This document shows positions 1,137-54,026 of a DNA stretch of 64,000 nucleotides, one piece after another; positions within the stretch are counted from its first letter, which is position 1, and every line of letters starts with the position of its first letter. A program made the position numbers and the translations under genes. Under the pieces are notes generated by a model. The model saw nothing but the letters and a program-made list of their open reading frames with translations. It made no database searches and was not told the origin of the DNA. The stretch lies in assembly GCA_017466695.1 (NCBI GenBank), contig JAFTTR010000016.1:4015-68014 (forward strand). The letters are read 5' to 3'. The stretch comes from Alphaproteobacteria bacterium (GTDB lineage: Bacteria; Pseudomonadota; Alphaproteobacteria; CAAHEQ01; UBA3637).

Positions 1137-2417
1137 ATGAAAAAAGAAGATAAGCTACATCACTCACTTGAGTATGTTTTTAGAGGGGGTGTTGCAACTT
1201 CTGCAATGGATACATTGGCTGTGGGAAGTACCTTAACAGCTTACGCCTTATTACTCGGCGCTGGGAATGTTGCTATCGGTATTTTAGGTGCCATTCCCTT
1301 TATTGGTAATATGATTCACCTTTTTGCTTCTTATCTAATTGAAAAAGGAGTTTCAGCAAAAAAAATTGCCCTTGTTTCTTCATTTGCTGCCCGTCCATTT
1401 TATTTAATAGCTGCCTGTCTTTGTTTCTTTCCAACTGCCTCTTGGGCTGTTCCTGTTCTTATTGGCTCCTTACTTTGCTCCTACTTAATTGGGTCAATGT
1501 GTGGTGGTGCTTGGATGCCTTGGATGAAAGCATTGATTCCAGCCCGTTTGATGGGGAAATTTTTCTCCCATCGATTTAAATGGATGATGATTGCAAAAAT
1601 TATCTGTTTTATTTTTGCTTTTTCACTTATCAAAGTAGCCGAACCCTTTCAAAATGGGGAATTGTATTCCTATGCTTTTTTGATTTTCCTTGCCTTTTTA
1701 ATTAGTTTATATGGTGCTTATACATTCATTCATGTGGAAGATAGAAAAATTGAAACAAAAAAAGAGCTTCCCTTTCTTCAAAAGGTTATTCACACGTTCA
1801 AAAATAAACCATTTTCAAAACTCTTAACAGCTCTAAGTGTTTTGAATTTTTCGATGAATTTCATTACCCCTTTTTTAACCGTCTTTATGCTTAAAAATTT
1901 AAATGTGGATATGTCAACAATTATTGGCCTGACACTTTTACAATGGATTGTTTATACTTTTGTTGTTAAAAAATGGGGAAAGATGTCTGATAAAAAAGGA
2001 CCTGAAAAAATCTTAATTGCTTCTATTCCTATCTTTATTATTTGCACTCTTATTTTTGTTGGATTAAATATATTTTCTGTTCAAGGTATACTCTTGCTTG
2101 GCATTTTGATTTTTGTGAATACATTATTAGGCATCTCAACTGCTGCACTTGCTTTAGGCATTAATAACACAAGCCTTCTTTATATGCCAAAAGATATGTC
2201 CTCGGTTTATTTATCCGTTAATTCTGTTTTTAAATCATTTGCAGCAGCGCTGGGTTCTATCGTTGCTGGCTATGCTCTTCTTGGATTTGAAGCTTTGTCA
2301 AATATACTCTCTATATCTAATAAAGTACAATTTCAATGGAATATGTTCTATTTTACAACAATTATTCTTTGTATTTTATCAATTTATTTATTAAAACAGG
2401 TCAAAAAATGTGTCTAA
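1137..2417 (+). CDS. MFS-type transporter (substrate unknown)
   Basis: 426 aa, about 12 predicted TM helices, two-half architecture typical of major facilitator superfamily. AAGGA SD-like sequence upstream. Confidence 0.7.
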   Translation: MKKEDKLHHSLEYVFRGGVATSAMDTLAVGSTLTAYALLLGAGNVAIGILGAIPFIGNMIHLFASYLIEKGVSAKKIALVSSFAARPFYLIAACLCFFPTASWAVPVLIGSLLCSYLIGSMCGGAWMPWMKALIPARLMGKFFSHRFKWMMIAKIICFIFAFSLIKVAEPFQNGELYSYAFLIFLAFLISLYGAYTFIHVEDRKIETKKELPFLQKVIHTFKNKPFSKLLTALSVLNFSMNFITPFLTVFMLKNLNVDMSTIIGLTLLQWIVYTFVVKKWGKMSDKKGPEKILIASIPIFIICTLIFVGLNIFSVQGILLLGILIFVNTLLGISTAALALGINNTSLLYMPKDMSSVYLSVNSVFKSFAAALGSIVAGYALLGFEALSNILSISNKVQFQWNMFYFTTIILCILSIYLLKQVKKCV

Positions 2418-2436: not shown

Positions 2437-3126
2437 ATGTATAATGGAAAAAAAATTTTAGCTCTTATCACAGCTCGTGCCGGTTCAAAAGGAATTATTG
2501 ATAAAAACCTTTATCCTATTAAAGGAAAACCACTTATTAATTATTCAATTGAGGCCGCTTTAAAATCAAAATATCTTGACGCCATCTATTGCACAACAGA
2601 TGGTGAGAAAATTAAAAACACCTGCTTACAAGCTGGGATTAATGTAATTGACAGACCAAAAGAACTGGCTTCTGACACATCAAAATCCATCGATTGTGTT
2701 GTTCATGCTATCGAAGAATTGAAAAAACAAGGCAAAGAATTTGATTATATTCTTCAGCTTCAACCAACAAGCCCACTGAGACAAGCCTTTCACATTGACG
2801 GCATCATTCAAGAATGTATCGACAAAGGGTTGGATCAAATGCTTTCTGTCCATCAAGTTGAATACAACCCTATTTTAGTGCGCTTTTATAAAGAGGGAAA
2901 ATTAACAAATATTTTAAATCAACAATCCACTGTTCGCAGACAAGATATGCCCAAAGCCGTTTATGTGAACGGAATGCTTTATTTAAGCAAAACAGAACTG
3001 CTCTCTTTAGAAACAAGTTTAAACGATATTCCAAACGGATTTGAGGTTGACCCCCATTTCGCACTCGATATTAATGATATGCATGATATTGAATTAGCCG
3101 AAATAATGCTCAAAGAAATGGATTAA
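2437..3126 (+). CDS. neuA: N-acylneuraminate cytidylyltransferase (CMP-sialic/nonulosonic acid synthetase)
   Basis: 229 aa. N-terminal ILALITARAGSKGIIDKN and QLQPTSPLR blocks match the NeuA/CMP-NeuAc synthetase family (E. coli K1 NeuA IIAIIPARSGSKGLRNKN ... LQPTSPFR). Short form without the esterase domain. Confidence 0.8.
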   Translation: MYNGKKILALITARAGSKGIIDKNLYPIKGKPLINYSIEAALKSKYLDAIYCTTDGEKIKNTCLQAGINVIDRPKELASDTSKSIDCVVHAIEELKKQGKEFDYILQLQPTSPLRQAFHIDGIIQECIDKGLDQMLSVHQVEYNPILVRFYKEGKLTNILNQQSTVRRQDMPKAVYVNGMLYLSKTELLSLETSLNDIPNGFEVDPHFALDINDMHDIELAEIMLKEMD

Positions 3127-3186
3127 ATCTTTACATTTTTAAATTTTTATATTTTAATAATTTTGTTTAAACTGAAAGGACAAACA

Positions 3187-3732
3187 ATGAAAAAATGGCT
3201 ACTTTCACTTATAGCAGGATTATTTATTACATCAAGCGTAGGAGCTCAAACAATGGATAAAGAAAATACACTTTACTTAGATACTGAAAATGGGCGTGTA
3301 ACAATCGAATTATACCCAGATGTTGCACCAAATCACGTTGCCAGAATCAAAGAATTAACACGTGAAGGATTTTATAATGGCGTTAAATTCCATCGTGTTA
3401 TTCCTGGATTTATGGCTCAAACAGGGGACCCAACCGGCACAGGTATGGGTGGTTCAGGCAAAAAGTTAAAGGCTGAATTCAACTCTAAACACCATGGACG
3501 TGGCACTGTTTCAATGGCACGAGCAATGGATCCAAACAGCGCAGATAGTCAATTTTTCATCTGCTTTGATGATGCTGGATTCTTAGATGGGCAATACACT
3601 GTTTTTGGTCAAGTAACATCCGGCATGGAATTTGTCGATATGATCAAAGCTGGTACGTCAGCAAATAATGGCAAGGTTTCAAATCCTGATATTATTGTTA
3701 AAATGCAAGTTGCAGCAGATGCTGACAAATAA
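3187..3732 (+). CDS. peptidyl-prolyl cis-trans isomerase, cyclophilin type, secreted
   Basis: Start moved to MKKWLL (SD AAAGGA 7 nt upstream). Signal peptide. Cyclophilin core HRVIPGFMAQTGDPTGTGMGGSG. Confidence 0.9.
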   Translation: MKKWLLSLIAGLFITSSVGAQTMDKENTLYLDTENGRVTIELYPDVAPNHVARIKELTREGFYNGVKFHRVIPGFMAQTGDPTGTGMGGSGKKLKAEFNSKHHGRGTVSMARAMDPNSADSQFFICFDDAGFLDGQYTVFGQVTSGMEFVDMIKAGTSANNGKVSNPDIIVKMQVAADADK

Positions 3733-3746
3733 ATTTTAACCTCTTA

Positions 3747-3778
3747 TAAAAAGCGCCGATATTCTCGGCGCTTTTTTA
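3747..3778. terminator. bidirectional rho-independent terminator between convergent ppi gene and GT gene
   Basis: 8-bp GC-rich stem agcgccga / tcggcgct, 5-nt loop, A-run 5' and T-run 3'. Confidence 0.7.
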
Positions 3779-5410
3779 TAAAAGAAATTGAATAAAATAA
3801 GGTACAAGGAAATAAGATACTTTTTCTAACATATAAGAATAATCTCCTTTTTTATCTTTAAGATAATCTAAACAATTTCCCTTTTCCCAACAAATTGTCA
3901 ATCTCAAATCTGATTTATTCTTTATAACCCCACACTTATTGTTTAAATCACAAATATATTTTCCATCAAAAATAAGTTTAATCTTTTCATTTAGATCATT
4001 ACGAATTGTCAAACGATTGATTGGTTTAGCTACATAGATATTTTTTTCTTTTTCATAAATAACTTTTGTCTCTTTTGAGAAATAACTTTTCTTGTTAGGA
4101 TACAACACAACCTTTTTTCCAAATAAAAATAAAGTAAAAGAATCATTGTTTAAAATTGAAAAAAACATTCCATTGTGATATGTTAAATAATCAATTTTAG
4201 AACCCATCAAAATTTTTTCATCATAATACGCTACAGCTGTAAAATAGCTATCTAAATCAATTTTCTTCGTTTTTTCAATTTTTTTAAATGTGTCTAATCC
4301 TTTCTCATATCCTCTATGAATAAAATAACTTTCTATTTTTTCATTTTTGAGATTGTAAAACAAAGAAGACGCCATTCCTGAAAATTTTTCAGCCTCTAAA
4401 CCTGCTATAATAAAAATTTCATAGGGGATTTTTGCATTAACTATTACAACTTTAGGAAAATTCTTTTTAAAAATTTGATTTCTGTTATAAGAACCATACG
4501 AGGGATGAGGTTTAAAAAGAAAAAGATAATCAGGGTACTTTTTAATCAAATCATTAAAATAAGAAATTTCTGCATTATACCTTTTGAACTTATTACCATG
4601 ATGTCCCCCAAAGAACATAAAAATATCATTTTTTTGAAATAATTTTTGATAGTATTCAAAATTAAATCCAACAAATTGATATAATAATTTTTTTTGTTCC
4701 ACTGTTAACTTATCCTTTAACTGATAAAAATCAATCTGTTCAAAATGAGCATCTTTCATTTCTTTAAAAAAATGATGAAATTCGAGCTTGTTTTTTGCCT
4801 CATTTATACCAAACATATGATATGTGGCAGGATAAAATTTGTGAAACGAATATTTCATCTCATCTATATTATTAAGATTAAAATTAGATTCTTTTAAACA
4901 TATCAATGATTGAAAATATGTTGATTCAGTAAATAATCCCCCTAATCCATCTTCATACAAATGAATATGTTTAATTCGTTCACGAGGGAACATTTTTAAG
5001 AAATATCCGGTGAATAATTTATAACTATTTATGTTTGTATATAAAATAATCGGTGAATTTGGATTTTTTGATGCAATATCAAAAGCCATTTCCATAAATT
5101 TTTTTGCATTTTTTTCAGATTCTTCTTCTGCTAACAAAGGAATTTCTATTATATTATATTCTTTTAAATCAACTTTTTCTTTTCGATTTAAAAAACGGTG
5201 CCATCCAATTACTTTTAGTTCATCTTTTGGAAGTTGAACCAAATCAATCATGCCCAAAAACGCAGGTTGTGTCGCATATGTTTCAAAAAAAATGTGTATA
5301 GGCTTATCCTTATATTGCTCATTATCCACTTGGGAACTCATTGCAACTCTTGGTACAAAAAAGAGACAAAAAAACAAAATTACAATTTCAATTTTTCTTA
5401 ACAAAATCAA
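3776..5410 (-). CDS. putative sialyltransferase (GT80/GT52-like motifs) with C-terminal extension
   Basis: 544 aa, N-terminal signal/anchor. Ordered motifs LYEDG (about res 150), KPHPSYG (about res 303) and GMASSL (about res 347) mirror the D/E-D/E-G, HP and SS motifs and the spacing of PmST1-type bacterial sialyltransferases. Convergent neighbour of neuA. Confidence 0.5.
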   Translation of the reverse strand: MILLRKIEIVILFFCLFFVPRVAMSSQVDNEQYKDKPIHIFFETYATQPAFLGMIDLVQLPKDELKVIGWHRFLNRKEKVDLKEYNIIEIPLLAEEESEKNAKKFMEMAFDIASKNPNSPIILYTNINSYKLFTGYFLKMFPRERIKHIHLYEDGLGGLFTESTYFQSLICLKESNFNLNNIDEMKYSFHKFYPATYHMFGINEAKNKLEFHHFFKEMKDAHFEQIDFYQLKDKLTVEQKKLLYQFVGFNFEYYQKLFQKNDIFMFFGGHHGNKFKRYNAEISYFNDLIKKYPDYLFLFKPHPSYGSYNRNQIFKKNFPKVVIVNAKIPYEIFIIAGLEAEKFSGMASSLFYNLKNEKIESYFIHRGYEKGLDTFKKIEKTKKIDLDSYFTAVAYYDEKILMGSKIDYLTYHNGMFFSILNNDSFTLFLFGKKVVLYPNKKSYFSKETKVIYEKEKNIYVAKPINRLTIRNDLNEKIKLIFDGKYICDLNNKCGVIKNKSDLRLTICWEKGNCLDYLKDKKGDYSYMLEKVSYFLVPYFIQFLL

Positions 5411-5444
5411 TGTATTACACCTATATTTTTCAAAACATCATCCT

Positions 5445-5580
5445 GTAAAAAAAACGGTCCTTTATTTTTCCTATTTTTTTAACAAAATCAAAAATAAAAA
5501 ATCATACAATTCATATAGTTATATTTTTTATTCTATCATTTATTTATGTAAAAAAAACGGTCGTTTTTTTCCTATTTATA
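5445..5580. repeat. pair of imperfect ~35-nt direct repeats in AT-rich intergenic region
   Basis: gtaaaaaaaacggtcctttatttttcctattttttt (5445..5480) vs gtaaaaaaaacggtcgtttttttcctatttata (5548..5580). Confidence 0.6.
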
Positions 5581-5589
5581 TTTTTTATA

Positions 5590-5622
5590 TAAAAAAAAGA
5601 GTGGAAAATCCACTCTTTTTTC
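5590..5622. terminator. rho-independent terminator downstream of gyrA (bidirectional)
   Basis: Perfect 8-bp stem agagtgga/tccactct, loop aaa, flanked by A8 and T6 runs, 15 nt past the gyrA stop. Confidence 0.8.
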
Positions 5623-5636
5623 ATCATCTATGCCTA

Positions 5637-49827: not shown

Positions 49828-50799
49828 CTACTTTAAATTCTTTAATGTTTGAAACATAATATCAAAAAAACTTTTTTCATTCACCTTTCGAATAACATTT
49901 ACCAAGAACCCTTCATCATCAATAAGAGTTTTACCCCTTGTATTTGTTAAATCAATTTTAAGTGGTATCTTTTCTTGAACAAAAATCGATGGCTCAATTA
50001 AATATGCCATCGCAACGGCATCATGTATAGCTCGGACAGGGTCATTCTTGTTTTTTCGTAATGCCCCATAATCTAAAACATCCTCTGGTCCCACAGTTGC
50101 AAGCATATCAGCAACAGATATGCCCATCCAACCAATAGAACGTAACTTTTTATCAATTTCACCATTATATAAAATTTTTCGTGTTACGTCCAACCCTATT
50201 AAATTAATCTGTTTTATCTTAGAACTCAAAACTTGATGAACAGCTTCTGGATCAGTGGCAAAATTATATTCTGCATAAGTTTTACCTCCATCATATGAAA
50301 TATTGCCAAATCTGTTGTGAATATGTTCTTTAAAAACACACCCACCCATAATTGTTAAACTAGGTATATTTGTTGCTATTAATGAATTTCTTTTTAAAGC
50401 ATGCGCTATATTTGTTTGAGGAGCCAATGCACACAAATGAATATTTGATTGACTACTATACAAATCACTCAAAAAGTCAGAAGCACTTACAGAGGATATA
50501 TTTCCTTTTAAACAGGGCCAATAAGATGTCCCATCCATCCCAGAATATCCAAAAACATCTTCAAGCGTCACATGTTTTTGTTTTAATGGTTTAGTTGCAC
50601 CTTTATAAATTGGAATATCTTCTCTTTTTGCTAATGAGAGTATTTTGCAAGCGTTTTGTAATGTTTTATCAACACCAACATTTCCTGCAACAACCGAGAG
50701 TGCCTTTACCTTAATATTTTCAGCACCCAACGCCATCAAAATAGCAAGCGCATCGTCTTGTCCTGGATCGCAATCAATTACAATTTCTTTTATGCTCAT
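49828..50799 (-). CDS. inosine-uridine preferring nucleoside hydrolase
   Basis: N-terminal aspartate cluster DCDPGQDDALAIL (IUNH signature DxDxxxDD). Confidence 0.9.
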   Translation of the reverse strand: MSIKEIVIDCDPGQDDALAILMALGAENIKVKALSVVAGNVGVDKTLQNACKILSLAKREDIPIYKGATKPLKQKHVTLEDVFGYSGMDGTSYWPCLKGNISSVSASDFLSDLYSSQSNIHLCALAPQTNIAHALKRNSLIATNIPSLTIMGGCVFKEHIHNRFGNISYDGGKTYAEYNFATDPEAVHQVLSSKIKQINLIGLDVTRKILYNGEIDKKLRSIGWMGISVADMLATVGPEDVLDYGALRKNKNDPVRAIHDAVAMAYLIEPSIFVQEKIPLKIDLTNTRGKTLIDDEGFLVNVIRKVNEKSFFDIMFQTLKNLK

Positions 50800-50803
50800 T
50801 TAT

Positions 50804-51748
50804 TTACCGCAAAATAAAATCAACTCGTTCTTTGAATGATAAATTTTTAGGGTAAGAATCTATTTCTTTTAAAATATGGACTAACCCTTTTTGATTCGCT
50901 ATTTGAATTGCTAACCCTGGACGAGCGTTTAACTCTAACATCATAGGACCCAGCTCTTTATCCATCACAATATCAGCTCCCAAATATCCAAGACCTGTCA
51001 TATCATATCCTTTTGAAGCAATTTCCAAATGTGTACGCCAATCAGGAACTTTTAATGTTAACAGGTCAGCCCCTGTATCTGGATGATATGAAATAGGCAT
51101 ATTATGTTGAACAGCTGCCAAAGCTTTCCCTGTTTTAATATCGATACCGACACCAACAGCTCCTTGGTGCAAATTGGCTCGCCCTCCTGATTCTTTTGTT
51201 GCAAGTCGCATCATAGCAATAGCTGGATATCCCTTATAAACAATAATACGCACATCTGGAATCCCTTGAAAGCTATAATCTTTAAATTGATCTGAAAAAG
51301 AAACAACCTCCTCAATAATTGCTTCATCATATTGACCACCCAAACTATATAATCCACTTAATACATTTGAGATGTGTTGGTAAACTTCTGTGAATTTTAT
51401 AACTTTATTTGAAGCCGTTCTAAAATGATTTTGTGTGTAATGTTTAATAACTAAAACCCCTTTACCCCCGCTTCCATGAGCTGGTTTTATGACAAATCCT
51501 TTCCATCCTTTTACCATTTGAAGAAAATTTTTCACTTCATACTGCGCTTTTATAACACCTATTAATCTTGGCGTTTGAATCCCAACCGTTGTTGCCAACT
51601 CTTTTGTTTTTACCTTATCATCAACCAATGGATATAATCGTCTTGAATTATGTAATCCAATAATTGAAAAATTACGATAATTCATATTTAAGACACCTGC
51701 TTTTTTCAAAGCCCAAGGAGATGCAAACATTCTAAAAAATTTAAACAT
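50804..51748 (-). CDS. ATP-grasp enzyme, alpha-L-glutamate ligase-like (RimK-related)
   Basis: 314 aa; ATP-grasp core GFVIKPAHGSGGKGVLVI ... DIVMDKELGPMMLELNARPGL. Confidence 0.75.
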   Translation of the reverse strand: MFKFFRMFASPWALKKAGVLNMNYRNFSIIGLHNSRRLYPLVDDKVKTKELATTVGIQTPRLIGVIKAQYEVKNFLQMVKGWKGFVIKPAHGSGGKGVLVIKHYTQNHFRTASNKVIKFTEVYQHISNVLSGLYSLGGQYDEAIIEEVVSFSDQFKDYSFQGIPDVRIIVYKGYPAIAMMRLATKESGGRANLHQGAVGVGIDIKTGKALAAVQHNMPISYHPDTGADLLTLKVPDWRTHLEIASKGYDMTGLGYLGADIVMDKELGPMMLELNARPGLAIQIANQKGLVHILKEIDSYPKNLSFKERVDFILR

Positions 51749-53318
51749 TTCCCCCTCTTTTATTTGTTTTTTTCAGTTTTTTTTTACTTTTTACCAAAGG
51801 AGCAAAACGTTTCAATTCCGTAAGTCTATATCCTGTATATATTCCAAGCAACATAATTAAAAAGAGAATAACAACATTTAACTCATTAAAAGCAAATGTA
51901 ATATGTCTAATTGACTCATTTACAATCACAAAATAAATTACAATTGCAGCAAACAAACTGTATAACATTTCTTTAAATGCATTTTTAAAACCTTCTTCCT
52001 CCCAAATAATAGACCCTCTTTCAATAACCCAAGCTATAATAATAATTGGGAAAAAGAGTGCTGAAGAAGCGACTTGCCAATCAAATTGATAACCCAAAAT
52101 AGCAAATATTTGAATAAGTAATATCACAAAAACAACAACAGCAGAAATACGTGGAACAAGCAATAAATTCAAGCGTGATAAACACATTCGAATAAATAAA
52201 CCAACACCAACAACAATACTAAAACAAATCAATCCTTTTAAAAATCCAGTTTCAACCAAAGCCATAGAAATCAACATTGGTGTAAACGTCCCCATTGTTT
52301 TAATGCCTATTACATTTCTTAAAATAACAACGACTAAAATCGCCAAAGGAAAAACCATCAACCATTTGAGTGCATTTTGCTGTTCGAGGGGCAAATTATA
52401 AACAGAATAAGAAAAAAAGTTTTCAATATCTGCATTTTTCGATCTATGTTTTGCCATACTAAATGAAGAATTAAGCGATTTTAAAACAGAATATTTTATT
52501 GAAGAATCCCCTCCTCCGATAACATCTACCAAAGAAGCATTGCCTTTTTGAAATACAATAAAATCTGCAGGCAAACCTGTTTTCCCTGTTTCGATATTAT
52601 AAACATACCATTTTTTTTCATTTAAGTTATAAGCCTCTATCATCACATCAGCTGTAACCGATTTTTTCCCTTCAACTAAATGAACACCTCTAATGACTCT
52701 GGCTGGTATATTTTCAAGCGCCAACAGATCGACAATTTTTTCTGCTTTTTCTTTTAATTTAGTTCTTTTAGGTAAAAAAGACTGAACAAGTTCTGTTGCC
52801 TCCTCATTATTTAAAAGTGCAATAATTTTTTGCGCATTATCCCCTTCTTCTTTTTTTGCAACTTGAAGCAATTCTTTAGCAATCATCATTGTTTCATCAT
52901 CAAACAATGGCTCAACAATTTTTGGTGGATTATTTTCTTTTTTTGCTTTTTTTGCATCAACTGTATCATAAAGCAAAATCCGATAATACACATTTTGTGT
53001 CTTTTTTAAATTTTTCCCAACCAACTTGATTGTTCTATCTTTTTTTTGAACAGTATAATTACCCTTTGCAATTGTATTTTCATCCAAAATTTTAAATGTG
53101 CCATCCACAATGGGTCGAGAAAAAACAATTTCCACATTTTCAGAGACAGGTTTAAATTTTAAGTTTGCTTCAATTGTCCAAACAGGTGTCTTTTTATCAA
53201 TCTCCCATGTAAAATTCAAAAAATGTTGTTTGTAATAAATTCCAAAACCAGCATACAAAAGAGAAAAGATTAATCCTACAAATAAACTCCATCTTACAAT
53301 TGCTAGTTTTTTAAACAT
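51741..53318 (-). CDS. 7TM membrane protein with large N-terminal extracytoplasmic domain (inactive-transglutaminase-fused 7TM family-like)
   Basis: 525 aa; N-terminal anchor, about 280-aa soluble domain, then seven predicted TM helices (res 310-505); overlaps the ATP-grasp gene start by 8 nt. Confidence 0.6.
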   Translation of the reverse strand: MFKKLAIVRWSLFVGLIFSLLYAGFGIYYKQHFLNFTWEIDKKTPVWTIEANLKFKPVSENVEIVFSRPIVDGTFKILDENTIAKGNYTVQKKDRTIKLVGKNLKKTQNVYYRILLYDTVDAKKAKKENNPPKIVEPLFDDETMMIAKELLQVAKKEEGDNAQKIIALLNNEEATELVQSFLPKRTKLKEKAEKIVDLLALENIPARVIRGVHLVEGKKSVTADVMIEAYNLNEKKWYVYNIETGKTGLPADFIVFQKGNASLVDVIGGGDSSIKYSVLKSLNSSFSMAKHRSKNADIENFFSYSVYNLPLEQQNALKWLMVFPLAILVVVILRNVIGIKTMGTFTPMLISMALVETGFLKGLICFSIVVGVGLFIRMCLSRLNLLLVPRISAVVVFVILLIQIFAILGYQFDWQVASSALFFPIIIIAWVIERGSIIWEEEGFKNAFKEMLYSLFAAIVIYFVIVNESIRHITFAFNELNVVILFLIMLLGIYTGYRLTELKRFAPLVKSKKKLKKTNKRGGNV

Positions 53319-53330
53319 GGTATCCTCTTA

Positions 53331-53906
53331 TTAATATAACGTTTTTGAAAGAGCCGTATCAACAATAGCTCTACCTTTTAAAACATTTCGCCCAATTAAA
53401 CCTTGATAATCAAACTTAGAGCGATCAGCTAAAGAAAATTGTGTTGTTATTTTTTCATCTCCCATTTTAATGGTCATCAGAACAACTATTCTTTCTTCCG
53501 ATTCTTTTTGTCTTTTTATAGCCGTTTGGCGATAAACTCGTTTTTCAAAATGGTGTGTCTCCCCATTTTTTTTATTCACAACATCAAAAGAAACCCACTT
53601 AACTCCTTCTCTTTCAAAAAGATTAATATTTTGAGCATCAATAGAAGATGTCGCAGCCCCCGTATCAATTCTAGATAAAATCGCCTTTTTCATTGGTAAA
53701 AAATAAACAGGTTCAACCTCACCAATAATTCCTAATTTATGAGTTTGAGACACCTGTTCTTCTAGAGAGACAGCTGGGACTTTTATTGTTTTAATTGTTT
53801 CAATAACTGTTGGTTTTGTTGGCGTTATTTCTTTTTTTTCAACAGCACAAGATGAGCAAATAGCCAATGACAATACTAAAAAAGAACTTAAAAAATGTTT
53901 TTTCAT
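53331..53906 (-). CDS. retropepsin-like aspartic protease (COG4067 / putative ATP-dependent zinc protease family)
   Basis: Start at MKKHFL (AAAAGGGG SD); signal peptide; catalytic-type RIDTGAATSSID motif. Confidence 0.65.
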   Translation of the reverse strand: MKKHFLSSFLVLSLAICSSCAVEKKEITPTKPTVIETIKTIKVPAVSLEEQVSQTHKLGIIGEVEPVYFLPMKKAILSRIDTGAATSSIDAQNINLFEREGVKWVSFDVVNKKNGETHHFEKRVYRQTAIKRQKESEERIVVLMTIKMGDEKITTQFSLADRSKFDYQGLIGRNVLKGRAIVDTALSKTLY

Positions 53907-54026
53907 TTTTACCCCTTTTATGACATTTTTTTTATATTTTAATAAAAACATACAAAAAGTAAAGCAAAAACTTGCTATTTTTTTTTGAATAAAATATATT
54001 CATCATAAACAAAGGAGACGACTATA

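Follow-up and report, generated by a model that had tools for sequence, protein, structure and literature searches.

Sialyltransferases of glycosyltransferase family 80 (GT80 in the CAZy classification) are known mainly from Pasteurellaceae and Vibrionaceae and are heavily used as biocatalysts. In PM0188 of Pasteurella multocida (PmST1), the residues Asp141, His311, Glu338, Ser355 and Ser356 are important for catalysis, and the D/E-D/E-G and HP motifs are common to enzymes of families GT38, GT52 and GT80 (PMC4202792). In Haemophilus influenzae and other Pasteurellaceae, the sialylation of lipooligosaccharide (LOS) runs from a transporter through an activating enzyme (SiaB/NeuA) to a transferase, while Neisseria Lst, of family GT52, is a surface-exposed outer-membrane LOS sialyltransferase. 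Here we describe a GT80 homolog of 544 residues encoded in a 64,000-nucleotide stretch of DNA (hereafter the window; contig JAFTTR010000016.1, positions 4,015 to 68,014, assembly GCA_017466695.1) from an uncultured gut alphaproteobacterium. Our analysis suggests that this protein is probably a catalytically intact, inverting sialyltransferase that caps a surface glycan with scavenged sialic acid, supplied by a linked NeuA-like enzyme and a linked transporter of the major facilitator superfamily (MFS).

Compared with PmST1 (structures 2c83, 2ex0 and 2ihz), the window protein has the same GT-B fold, with a TM-score to the target of up to 0.75, the same LY(D/E)DG, HP, (F/Y)E and ASSL(Y/F) blocks in register, and a similar hydrophobic segment N-terminal to the catalytic part; a gene for a synthetase of the cytidine monophosphate (CMP) form of sialic acid, predicted in the case of the window, is present in both organisms. 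It differs from PmST1 in having only ~20% sequence identity, in an extra C-terminal beta domain of ~160 residues, in the non-conservation of H112 and W270, and in its host, which is not a pasteurellaceal pathogen. The best profile matches (E 7e-32) are the Photobacterium damselae alpha-2,6-sialyltransferase ST0160 (4r83/4r9v) and the enzyme of Photobacterium sp. JT-ISH-224 (2z4t), which are likewise three-part proteins with an accessory domain added to the GT-B core. Their accessory domain, however, is N-terminal and immunoglobulin (Ig)-like within a three-domain architecture (PMC4202792), whereas the window protein carries an all-beta accessory domain at its C-terminus, for which no relatives were detected in Pfam or the PDB.

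At the level of the pathway, the locus resembles Pasteurellaceae in its order of transporter, activating enzyme and transferase, in having no synthase gene in view and in its host-associated niche. It departs from them in that its transporter belongs to an uncharacterised MFS family and not to the tripartite ATP-independent periplasmic (TRAP; SiaPQM) or NanT types, that the three genes are physically linked, and that the host is a commensal-type gut anaerobe. With Neisseria Lst the protein has in common the D/E-D/E-G and HP motifs, an apparently extracytoplasmic location and the resulting question of donor supply; Lst nevertheless belongs to another CAZy family, and while gonococci take CMP-N-acetylneuraminic acid (CMP-Neu5Ac) from the host, the window genome encodes a probable synthetase of its own.

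Family membership was assessed with Pfam PF11477 (sialyltransferase PM0188, corresponding to CAZy GT80), which matched the 544-residue protein with 48.7 bits and E 7.1e-13, well above the gathering cut-off of 25 bits. A phmmer search against all PDB sequences returned 15 significant chains, all of them GT80 sialyltransferases from P. multocida, P. dagmatis and Photobacterium (E 6.6e-12 to 7e-9). The wider family consists of about 30 clusters at 90% identity, 34–41% identical to the query and 520–610 residues long, together with four short-form members (~400 residues) that lack the C-terminal domain. A profile built from 29 members matched all solved GT80 sialyltransferases with E-values between 7e-32 and 1e-23 along profile positions 44–378, which is the entire catalytic domain; P. 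damselae 4r9v was the best match, and PmST1 scored about 1e-27.

The structural predictions point in the same direction. An AlphaFold2 model calculated on the family alignment (mean predicted local distance difference test score, pLDDT, 86.5; predicted TM-score, pTM, 0.78) contains an N-terminal helix (residues 2–31), an alpha/beta region (38–390) and an all-beta C-terminal region (398–526). Foldseek placed 24 structures at the top of its PDB matches, all of them GT80 enzymes (E 2.2e-18 to 1.1e-15, TM-score normalised to the target 0.58–0.75), and generic GT-B enzymes appeared only from E 1.3e-6, after a gap of ~12 orders of magnitude. An initial annotation had read the protein as a PmST1-like sialyltransferase from three short motifs, and both the profile score, above the curated threshold, and the confident GT-B model with its exclusively GT80 neighbours bear this out. 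Sequence comparison and model together indicate that the protein is a bona fide GT80 member on a deep branch of the family. This is only moderately surprising, because the core assignment can be detected by a standard Pfam scan. The gene and the parts of its product are as follows.

3776–5410, minus strand: gene of the GT80-family sialyltransferase homolog, from a TTG start at 5410 to the stop codon at 3776–3778, identified from the open reading frame (ORF) list, Pfam, PDB matches and Foldseek.
5330–5410, minus strand: predicted N-terminal export signal or signal anchor, residues 1–27, with an n-region containing R5/K6 and an uncharged run from I9 to P21.
4259–5305, minus strand: GT-B catalytic domain, residues ~36–384, delimited by profile alignment to 4r9v, 2c83 and others; pLDDT of this block mostly >90.
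4946–4954, minus strand: E153-D154-G155, the D/E-D/E-G motif, with LYEDG aligned to LYDDG of 2c83_A (index 116–118, PmST1 D140-D141-G142).
4502–4507, minus strand: H302-P303, the HP motif (PmST1 H311-P312), aligned in register.
4418–4420, minus strand: E331, aligned as PYE to SFE with PmST1 E338, which contacts the CMP ribose.
4364–4369, minus strand: S348-S349, aligned as ASSLF to ASSLY with PmST1 S355-S356, which contact the CMP phosphate.
3824–4258, minus strand: C-terminal all-beta domain, residues 385–529, with about 13 beta strands in both models.
3830–4024, minus strand: terminal module of ~65 residues (~463–527) with four cysteines, Cys 487, 493, 507 and 513.

The three motifs named in the initial annotation are all present, as IHLYEDGLGG at residues 149–158, FKPHPSYG at 299–306 and GMASSLF at 345–351, and they agree with PmST1 far beyond chance, given the PF11477 score and PDB matches confined to GT80. 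Their order and spacing are also PmST1-like, with D154, H302, E331 and S348-S349 in register with D141, H311, E338 and S355-S356; the residue numbers 152, 304 and 346–347 given previously were wrong, and the counterparts of D141, H311 and S355-S356 are D154, H302 and S348-S349. For this comparison PmST1 numbering was taken as the 2c83_A chain index plus 24, which places the HP histidine (index 287) at 311 and the serine pair (331/332) at 355/356. Within the 29-sequence alignment, D154, G155, S348 and S349 are invariant and H302, P303 and E331 are conserved in at least 90% of members, with HP invariant in the homologs linked to the transporter and NeuA-like genes described below. By alignment, D154 is the predicted catalytic base, and from the global structural alignment and the sequence register the motif residues would be expected to converge on the nucleotide-sugar cleft.

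Two PmST1 residues fall outside this pattern. H112, reported to be important for activity, has S129 as its counterpart here and Asn in most of the family, and W270, which stacks on the acceptor, is matched by Gly, although the profile alignment is less certain in these loops; neither residue is a family-defining GT80 motif. Divergent GT80 sequences of this kind, without H112 and W270, could have another acceptor or linkage specificity that would be useful for glycan synthesis.

As a separate observation, the HP motif is missing from the relatives P0023 and P0025, which read KTNFAES there and LYNDG in place of LYEDG, and which may be inactive paralogs; these two proteins and the window protein have an unusual hydrophobic C-terminal tail in common.

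The ORF is uninterrupted over 3776–5410 on the minus strand, in agreement with the 544-residue ORF of the initial annotation; a plus-strand reading of the same interval was ruled out by dozens of stops. An AGGTG Shine-Dalgarno sequence precedes the TTG start with a spacer of 7 nt. In two metagenome-assembled genomes (MAGs), NCBI annotates the gene as a 521-residue 'hypothetical protein' beginning at M24 (MBQ8250816.1; contig JAZPMT010000012.1), which removes the hydrophobic N-terminus (5339–5410). Since 27 of the 29 family members combine a positively charged n-region with 12–24 uncharged residues ahead of a conserved KPIH-I/V-F block, we consider the TTG-start reading with an N-terminal signal or anchor to be better than the M24 call. 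The same conservation supports the earlier description of the protein as signal-anchored, and the AlphaFold2 helix at residues 2–31 covers this segment. A lipoprotein signal was rejected for the family, as no conserved lipobox Cys was seen when the N-termini were inspected by eye.

The region upstream of the gene contains several minor elements.

5411–5636, minus strand: intergenic region between gyrA and the sialyltransferase gene, with the gyrA terminator hairpin, a duplicated ~35-nt element and the AGGTG Shine-Dalgarno sequence.

Here a perfect 13-nt inverted repeat (5593–5605 and 5609–5621) with A/T runs on both sides looks like a bidirectional terminator hairpin, and the ~35-nt element occurs in two copies ~103 nt apart (5444–5476 and 5547–5577; minus-strand core GGACCGTTTTTTTTACA) and nowhere else in the window. 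A promoter and terminator scan around the sialyltransferase gene scored no better on the native than on shuffled sequence.

The C-terminal region, residues 385–544, is conserved in about 24 relatives. The initial annotation had described a roughly 180-residue, Cys-containing C-terminus without counterpart; the cysteines (four) and the lack of a Pfam or PDB match stand, while the length is about 160 residues. No Pfam match was found for this domain in any of 18 members, and Foldseek against the PDB gave no significant neighbour (best E 0.039, TM at most 0.26). Modelled separately, the domain consists entirely of beta hairpins, with pLDDT 73.5 overall and 81–94 over the last 70 structured residues.

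We searched 1.84 billion representative proteins exhaustively with a hidden Markov model of this domain, which yielded 118 clusters at E<=1e-3. Matches beyond the GT80 family mostly cover profile positions ~70–139 only, in one to five copies and often two to five, delineating a module of ~65 residues with the consensus HPxWxDxL...CR...DCG...ICW.KWGCE.F.K..G.Y. The module is fused to GT2 glycosyltransferases (P0115–P0117), to a GT10 fucosyltransferase and GT2 protein (P0123), to DUF4422 (P0126) and to an ankyrin-repeat protein (P0125), stands at the N-terminus of an arylsulfotransferase (P0147), and also occurs in small stand-alone anchored proteins. Within the GT80 family, P0010 has two copies, and no further copies were found elsewhere in the window or in the loci of its relatives. 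An Ig-repeat match (P0124) was set aside as compositional, since it consists only of a short 'SGDCGNVTS'-type stretch. Further module-bearing proteins in the same search are P0136, P0144 and P0155. The module may represent a family without a model in Pfam (2025 copy) that deserves a new domain description, and it occurs in several classes of glycan-modifying enzymes.

With one exception, long-form GT80 members have 4, 6 or 10 cysteines in the C-terminal domain, against none or one in the catalytic part of ~350 residues; outside the GT80 family the module cysteines are often missing. This distribution of cysteines, the Sec-like N-termini and the fusion to an arylsulfotransferase are all in keeping with an accessory domain that is exported and stapled by disulfides. 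The cysteines could instead form a metal site in the cytoplasm. As a working guess, the domain would serve in association with the envelope or with the acceptor. The window protein has the most divergent C-terminal domain of the family, at 94 bits compared with 155–211 for other members.

The sialyltransferase gene does not stand alone in the window. It converges on a co-directional plus-strand string of three genes encoding an MFS transporter, a NeuA-like enzyme and a cyclophilin.

1137–2417, plus strand: MFS transporter of a clade-restricted, uncharacterised family (Pfam MFS_1, 63 bits), linked to NeuA-like and GT80 genes.
2437–3126, plus strand: NeuA-like CMP-nonulosonate (sialate) cytidylyltransferase of 229 residues (Pfam CTP_transf_3, PF02348, 90 bits; PDB matches).
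3163–3732, plus strand: cyclophilin-type peptidyl-prolyl isomerase (Pfam Pro_isomerase, 160.7 bits), between the NeuA-like and sialyltransferase genes.

The distance from the sialyltransferase gene to the stop codon of the cyclophilin gene is 43 bp, and to that of the NeuA-like gene 649 bp. Thus the earlier statement that it is convergent with a NeuA-family gene holds for the string that contains that gene, while the two are not immediate neighbours, as the cyclophilin gene intervenes. We found no cyclophilin beside the corresponding genes at four related loci (L017, L020, L024 and L029), and its membership in the system is doubtful. The cyclophilin itself scores best against the periplasmic PpiA model and has ~37 residues before its domain, so it may be exported.

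The PDB matches of the NeuA-like protein are CMP-Neu5Ac synthetases only, namely those of Vibrio cholerae (6ifd, 9.5e-33), N. meningitidis (1eyr, 3.7e-25) and mouse (1qwj, 5.5e-20), with no KdsB at E<=1e-3. Its residues 5–226 align end-to-end with residues 3–224 of 1eyr, and the ARxGSKG, QPTSPLR, RRQD and NG-x-Y blocks are kept. The MFS family has 75 members, for which the sole source name is 'MFS transporter', and no NCBIfam model matched the window protein or its homologs at L017 and L024. Identity with the sialate symporter NanT (NF003024/TIGR00891) was rejected: BLASTP against E. coli NanT gave E 0.06, while E. coli NanT itself, as positive control, matched the sialate symporter models at 947 bits. 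A comparison of the MFS protein with the PDB was uninformative.

The association of these genes recurs in related gut Alphaproteobacteria MAGs, in which, the window included, they are linked in four different gene orders. The contexts of the MFS gene other than the window are listed below.

L017 and L020: co-oriented MFS, GT80 and NeuA-like genes, with synteny between the two loci.
L024: MFS gene divergent from NeuA-like and GT80 genes, adjoining LptF/G and GT2 genes.
L029: GT80, MFS and NeuA-like genes, the first two overlapping by 11 nt, adjacent to PrmA, a neighbour found in the window too.
L025: PrmA, MFS and NeuA-like genes, with no GT80 gene within 6 kb.
L026 and L028: MFS gene without a NeuA-like or GT80 partner.

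Altogether, a NeuA-like gene is adjacent to the MFS gene in six of eight contexts and a GT80 gene in five of eight, and all enzymes of the linked sets, which we term the cassette, retain their catalytic residues. Because the linkage survives rearrangement of the gene order, it is good evidence that the transporter, the NeuA-like enzyme and the GT80 protein are functionally coupled. Conserved synteny around the long-form homologs in general was rejected, as those of L002–L016 lie among unrelated housekeeping genes.

Together these data suggest a route for surface sialylation. The MFS protein, encoded directly upstream of the NeuA-like gene, is most likely an importer of sialic acid in free form (Neu5Ac, or N-glycolylneuraminic acid, Neu5Gc, from host mucins in the ruminant hindgut), and the NeuA-like cytidylyltransferase would convert this sugar to its CMP-activated form. 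By analogy with PmST1, D154 would take the proton from the acceptor hydroxyl, the HP-motif residue H302 and the pair S348/S349 would handle the CMP phosphate leaving group, and E331 would hold the ribose, allowing the GT80 enzyme to transfer the sugar with inversion to a surface glycan. In this way the LOS, lipopolysaccharide (LPS) or capsule of an uncultured gut alphaproteobacterium with a reduced genome would be capped with sialic acid. The N-terminal signal or anchor may tether or export the enzyme, and the C-terminal beta domain is probably accessory, aiding association with the envelope or the acceptor. Scavenging is favoured over synthesis since NeuB (PF03102) and NeuC (PF02350) domains, like NanA and sialidase domains, are absent from the called genes of the window (~1–57.5 kb), as they are from the cassette flanks of L017, L020, L024 and L029.

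Several observations weigh against this proposal or limit it. Both cassette partners are missing in two of the eight MFS contexts, and most long-form homologs (L002–L016) have no NeuA or MFS gene within 8–10 kb. The MFS protein resembles neither NanT nor any named transporter family, gene linkage being the basis for its putative substrate and direction, and NeuB and NeuC may be encoded elsewhere in the genome, outside the ~57 kb annotated. Because H112 and W270 are not conserved, acceptor and linkage specificity are not transferable from PmST1. The export-type N-terminus and four conserved cysteines suggest a periplasmic or surface enzyme, which a CMP-sugar made in the cytoplasm must then reach. 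Finally, the best NCBIfam model for the NeuA-like protein is PseF (122 bits), and with respect to the 'DID' motif of N. meningitidis NeuA, D209 aligns to Asp while the metal-site residue D211 aligns to Asn ('LDIND'), so the donor could be another nonulosonate.

This last possibility can be framed as an enzyme of the same fold and chemistry that uses a different CMP-linked sugar, such as legionaminic acid (Leg), pseudaminic acid (Pse), 3-deoxy-D-glycero-D-galacto-nonulosonic acid (Kdn) or 3-deoxy-D-manno-octulosonic acid (Kdo), made de novo elsewhere in the genome, with an MFS protein unrelated to uptake. Besides the PseF match, the Asp-to-Asn change, the distance of the MFS protein from NanT and the room for synthesis genes beyond the 64-kb window, the tolerance of GT80 enzymes for Leg and Kdn donors in vitro speaks for it. 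We nevertheless consider it unlikely: the PseF score is far below its cut-off of 205.7, the PDB matches of the NeuA-like protein are all CMP-Neu5Ac synthetases and never KdsB, all characterised GT80 enzymes are sialyltransferases, none of the five cassettes examined has a NeuB- or PseI-type synthase next to it, and a tightly linked transporter in a reduced genome fits scavenging better. The apparent export of the protein could instead mean that it works mainly outside the cytoplasm as a CMP-dependent sialidase or trans-sialidase, a role of which PmST1 is capable, stripping host sialic acid for uptake by the MFS protein or for direct transfer to the bacterial surface. An export-type N-terminus, the even Cys count of the C-terminal domain, the mucin-rich gut habitat and the multifunctionality of GT80 enzymes, which include sialidase and trans-sialidase activities (PMC4202792), agree with such a role. 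It is still quite improbable, given that the tight linkage to a CMP-sugar synthetase favours the forward transferase reaction and that the four cysteines could bind a metal in the cytoplasm. Moreover, the sialidase and trans-sialidase side activities of GT80 enzymes are CMP-dependent and minor.

That the window protein is a degenerate, non-catalytic relic of a GT80 enzyme, for instance a glycan-binding or structural envelope protein, we regard as hardly credible. Its C-terminal domain is the most divergent of the family, and its unusual C-terminal tail recurs in P0023 and P0025 with their altered motifs; against this, the window protein retains every catalytic and CMP-binding residue, and its catalytic domain is modelled with high confidence. 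A different arrangement of the same parts is a decided long shot: the enzyme would be exported and the MFS protein, no importer in this case, would bring CMP-sialic acid through the inner membrane to a site of sialylation in the periplasm or on the cell surface. Export itself is suggested by the Sec-type N-terminus in 27 of 29 members, by the even number of cysteines confined to the C-terminal module, and by the presence of that module on an arylsulfotransferase, an enzyme that is normally periplasmic. If this arrangement were true, bacteria would have in the transporter an equivalent of the Golgi CMP-sialic acid transporter, one that could answer the question of donor supply to extracytoplasmic bacterial sialyltransferases, and the 65-residue module would represent a new domain that targets exported glycan-modifying enzymes of these gut Alphaproteobacteria to the envelope or the acceptor.

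The catalytic core represents known biology, and what is new is the lineage, the C-terminal domain with its common module and the conserved MFS/NeuA/GT80 cassette. GT80 is thereby extended to a deep-branching clade in uncultured gut Alphaproteobacteria with reduced genomes, and the MFS family becomes a candidate carrier of sialic acid or CMP-sialic acid. Our findings suggest that these little-understood gut commensals use a compact cassette of transporter, activator and transferase to cover themselves with sialic acid from the host, and surface sialic acid in such commensals would bear on host mimicry or immune tolerance.

The distribution of the family is consistent with a gut habitat. A scan of contigs from species-representative genomes with the single protein found no relatives, whereas a scan with the family alignment found 13 loci, 12 of them from MAGs titled 'Alphaproteobacteria bacterium'. 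Isolate names among these loci (Yak_Rectum, Sheep_Rectum, Lapin) indicate that almost all relatives come from yak, sheep and rabbit guts, and the sample labels XIEF21 and TONG22 suggest metagenome collections from the ruminant gut. Among MAGs of the ruminant gastrointestinal tract, the novel Proteobacteria are dominated by uncultured Alphaproteobacteria, and RF32-order genomes of the ruminant gut are reduced, at ~1.6 Mb (PMC8199421). The G+C content of the window is 31–37%. Apart from the cassette the window encodes mostly housekeeping functions, among them GyrA, SSB, SecA, FliG, PBP1 and an oxaloacetate decarboxylase Na+ pump, and an Rfam scan of it returned one tRNA only.

The initial annotation had regarded surface sialylation in an alphaproteobacterium-like lineage as unusual. 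This view is softened by the reported presence of Neu5Ac in LPS from Rhodobacter capsulatus, itself an alphaproteobacterium (PMC9631793, which cites Krauss et al. 1992). It holds insofar as the searchable literature contained no paper linking GT80 with Alphaproteobacteria and none on a sialyltransferase with rumen MAGs.

Some of the related loci show features of their own. Two adjacent PM0188-family genes are found in some MAGs, convergent in L006 (8001–10985) and in tandem in L014 (10001–12405), and therefore indicate local expansion of the family. In one lineage, represented by L007/L008 (308–6135 and 15088–16443), the GT80 homolog lies among at least five ankyrin-repeat genes, with a neighbour that has a faint OspF/SpvC match; these surroundings hint at interaction with a eukaryotic host or protist. 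The locus L017 (CAYPVK010000006.1) is labelled 'uncultured Lactobacillales bacterium', yet it is syntenic with that of Alphaproteobacteria bacterium UBA7488 (L020) across CorA, MFS, GT80, NeuA, UDP-glucose dehydrogenase and hydrolase genes, so that the Lactobacillales label is likely due to mislabelling or misbinning.

Elsewhere in the window, the minus strand of 49828–53951 encodes a nucleoside hydrolase, an ATP-grasp protein (ATPgrasp_ST), a 7TM transglutaminase-like membrane protein (PF14400/PF14402) and a RimB-like protein. This cluster is a conserved and poorly understood gene set of the peptide-modification type, unrelated to the sialyltransferase.

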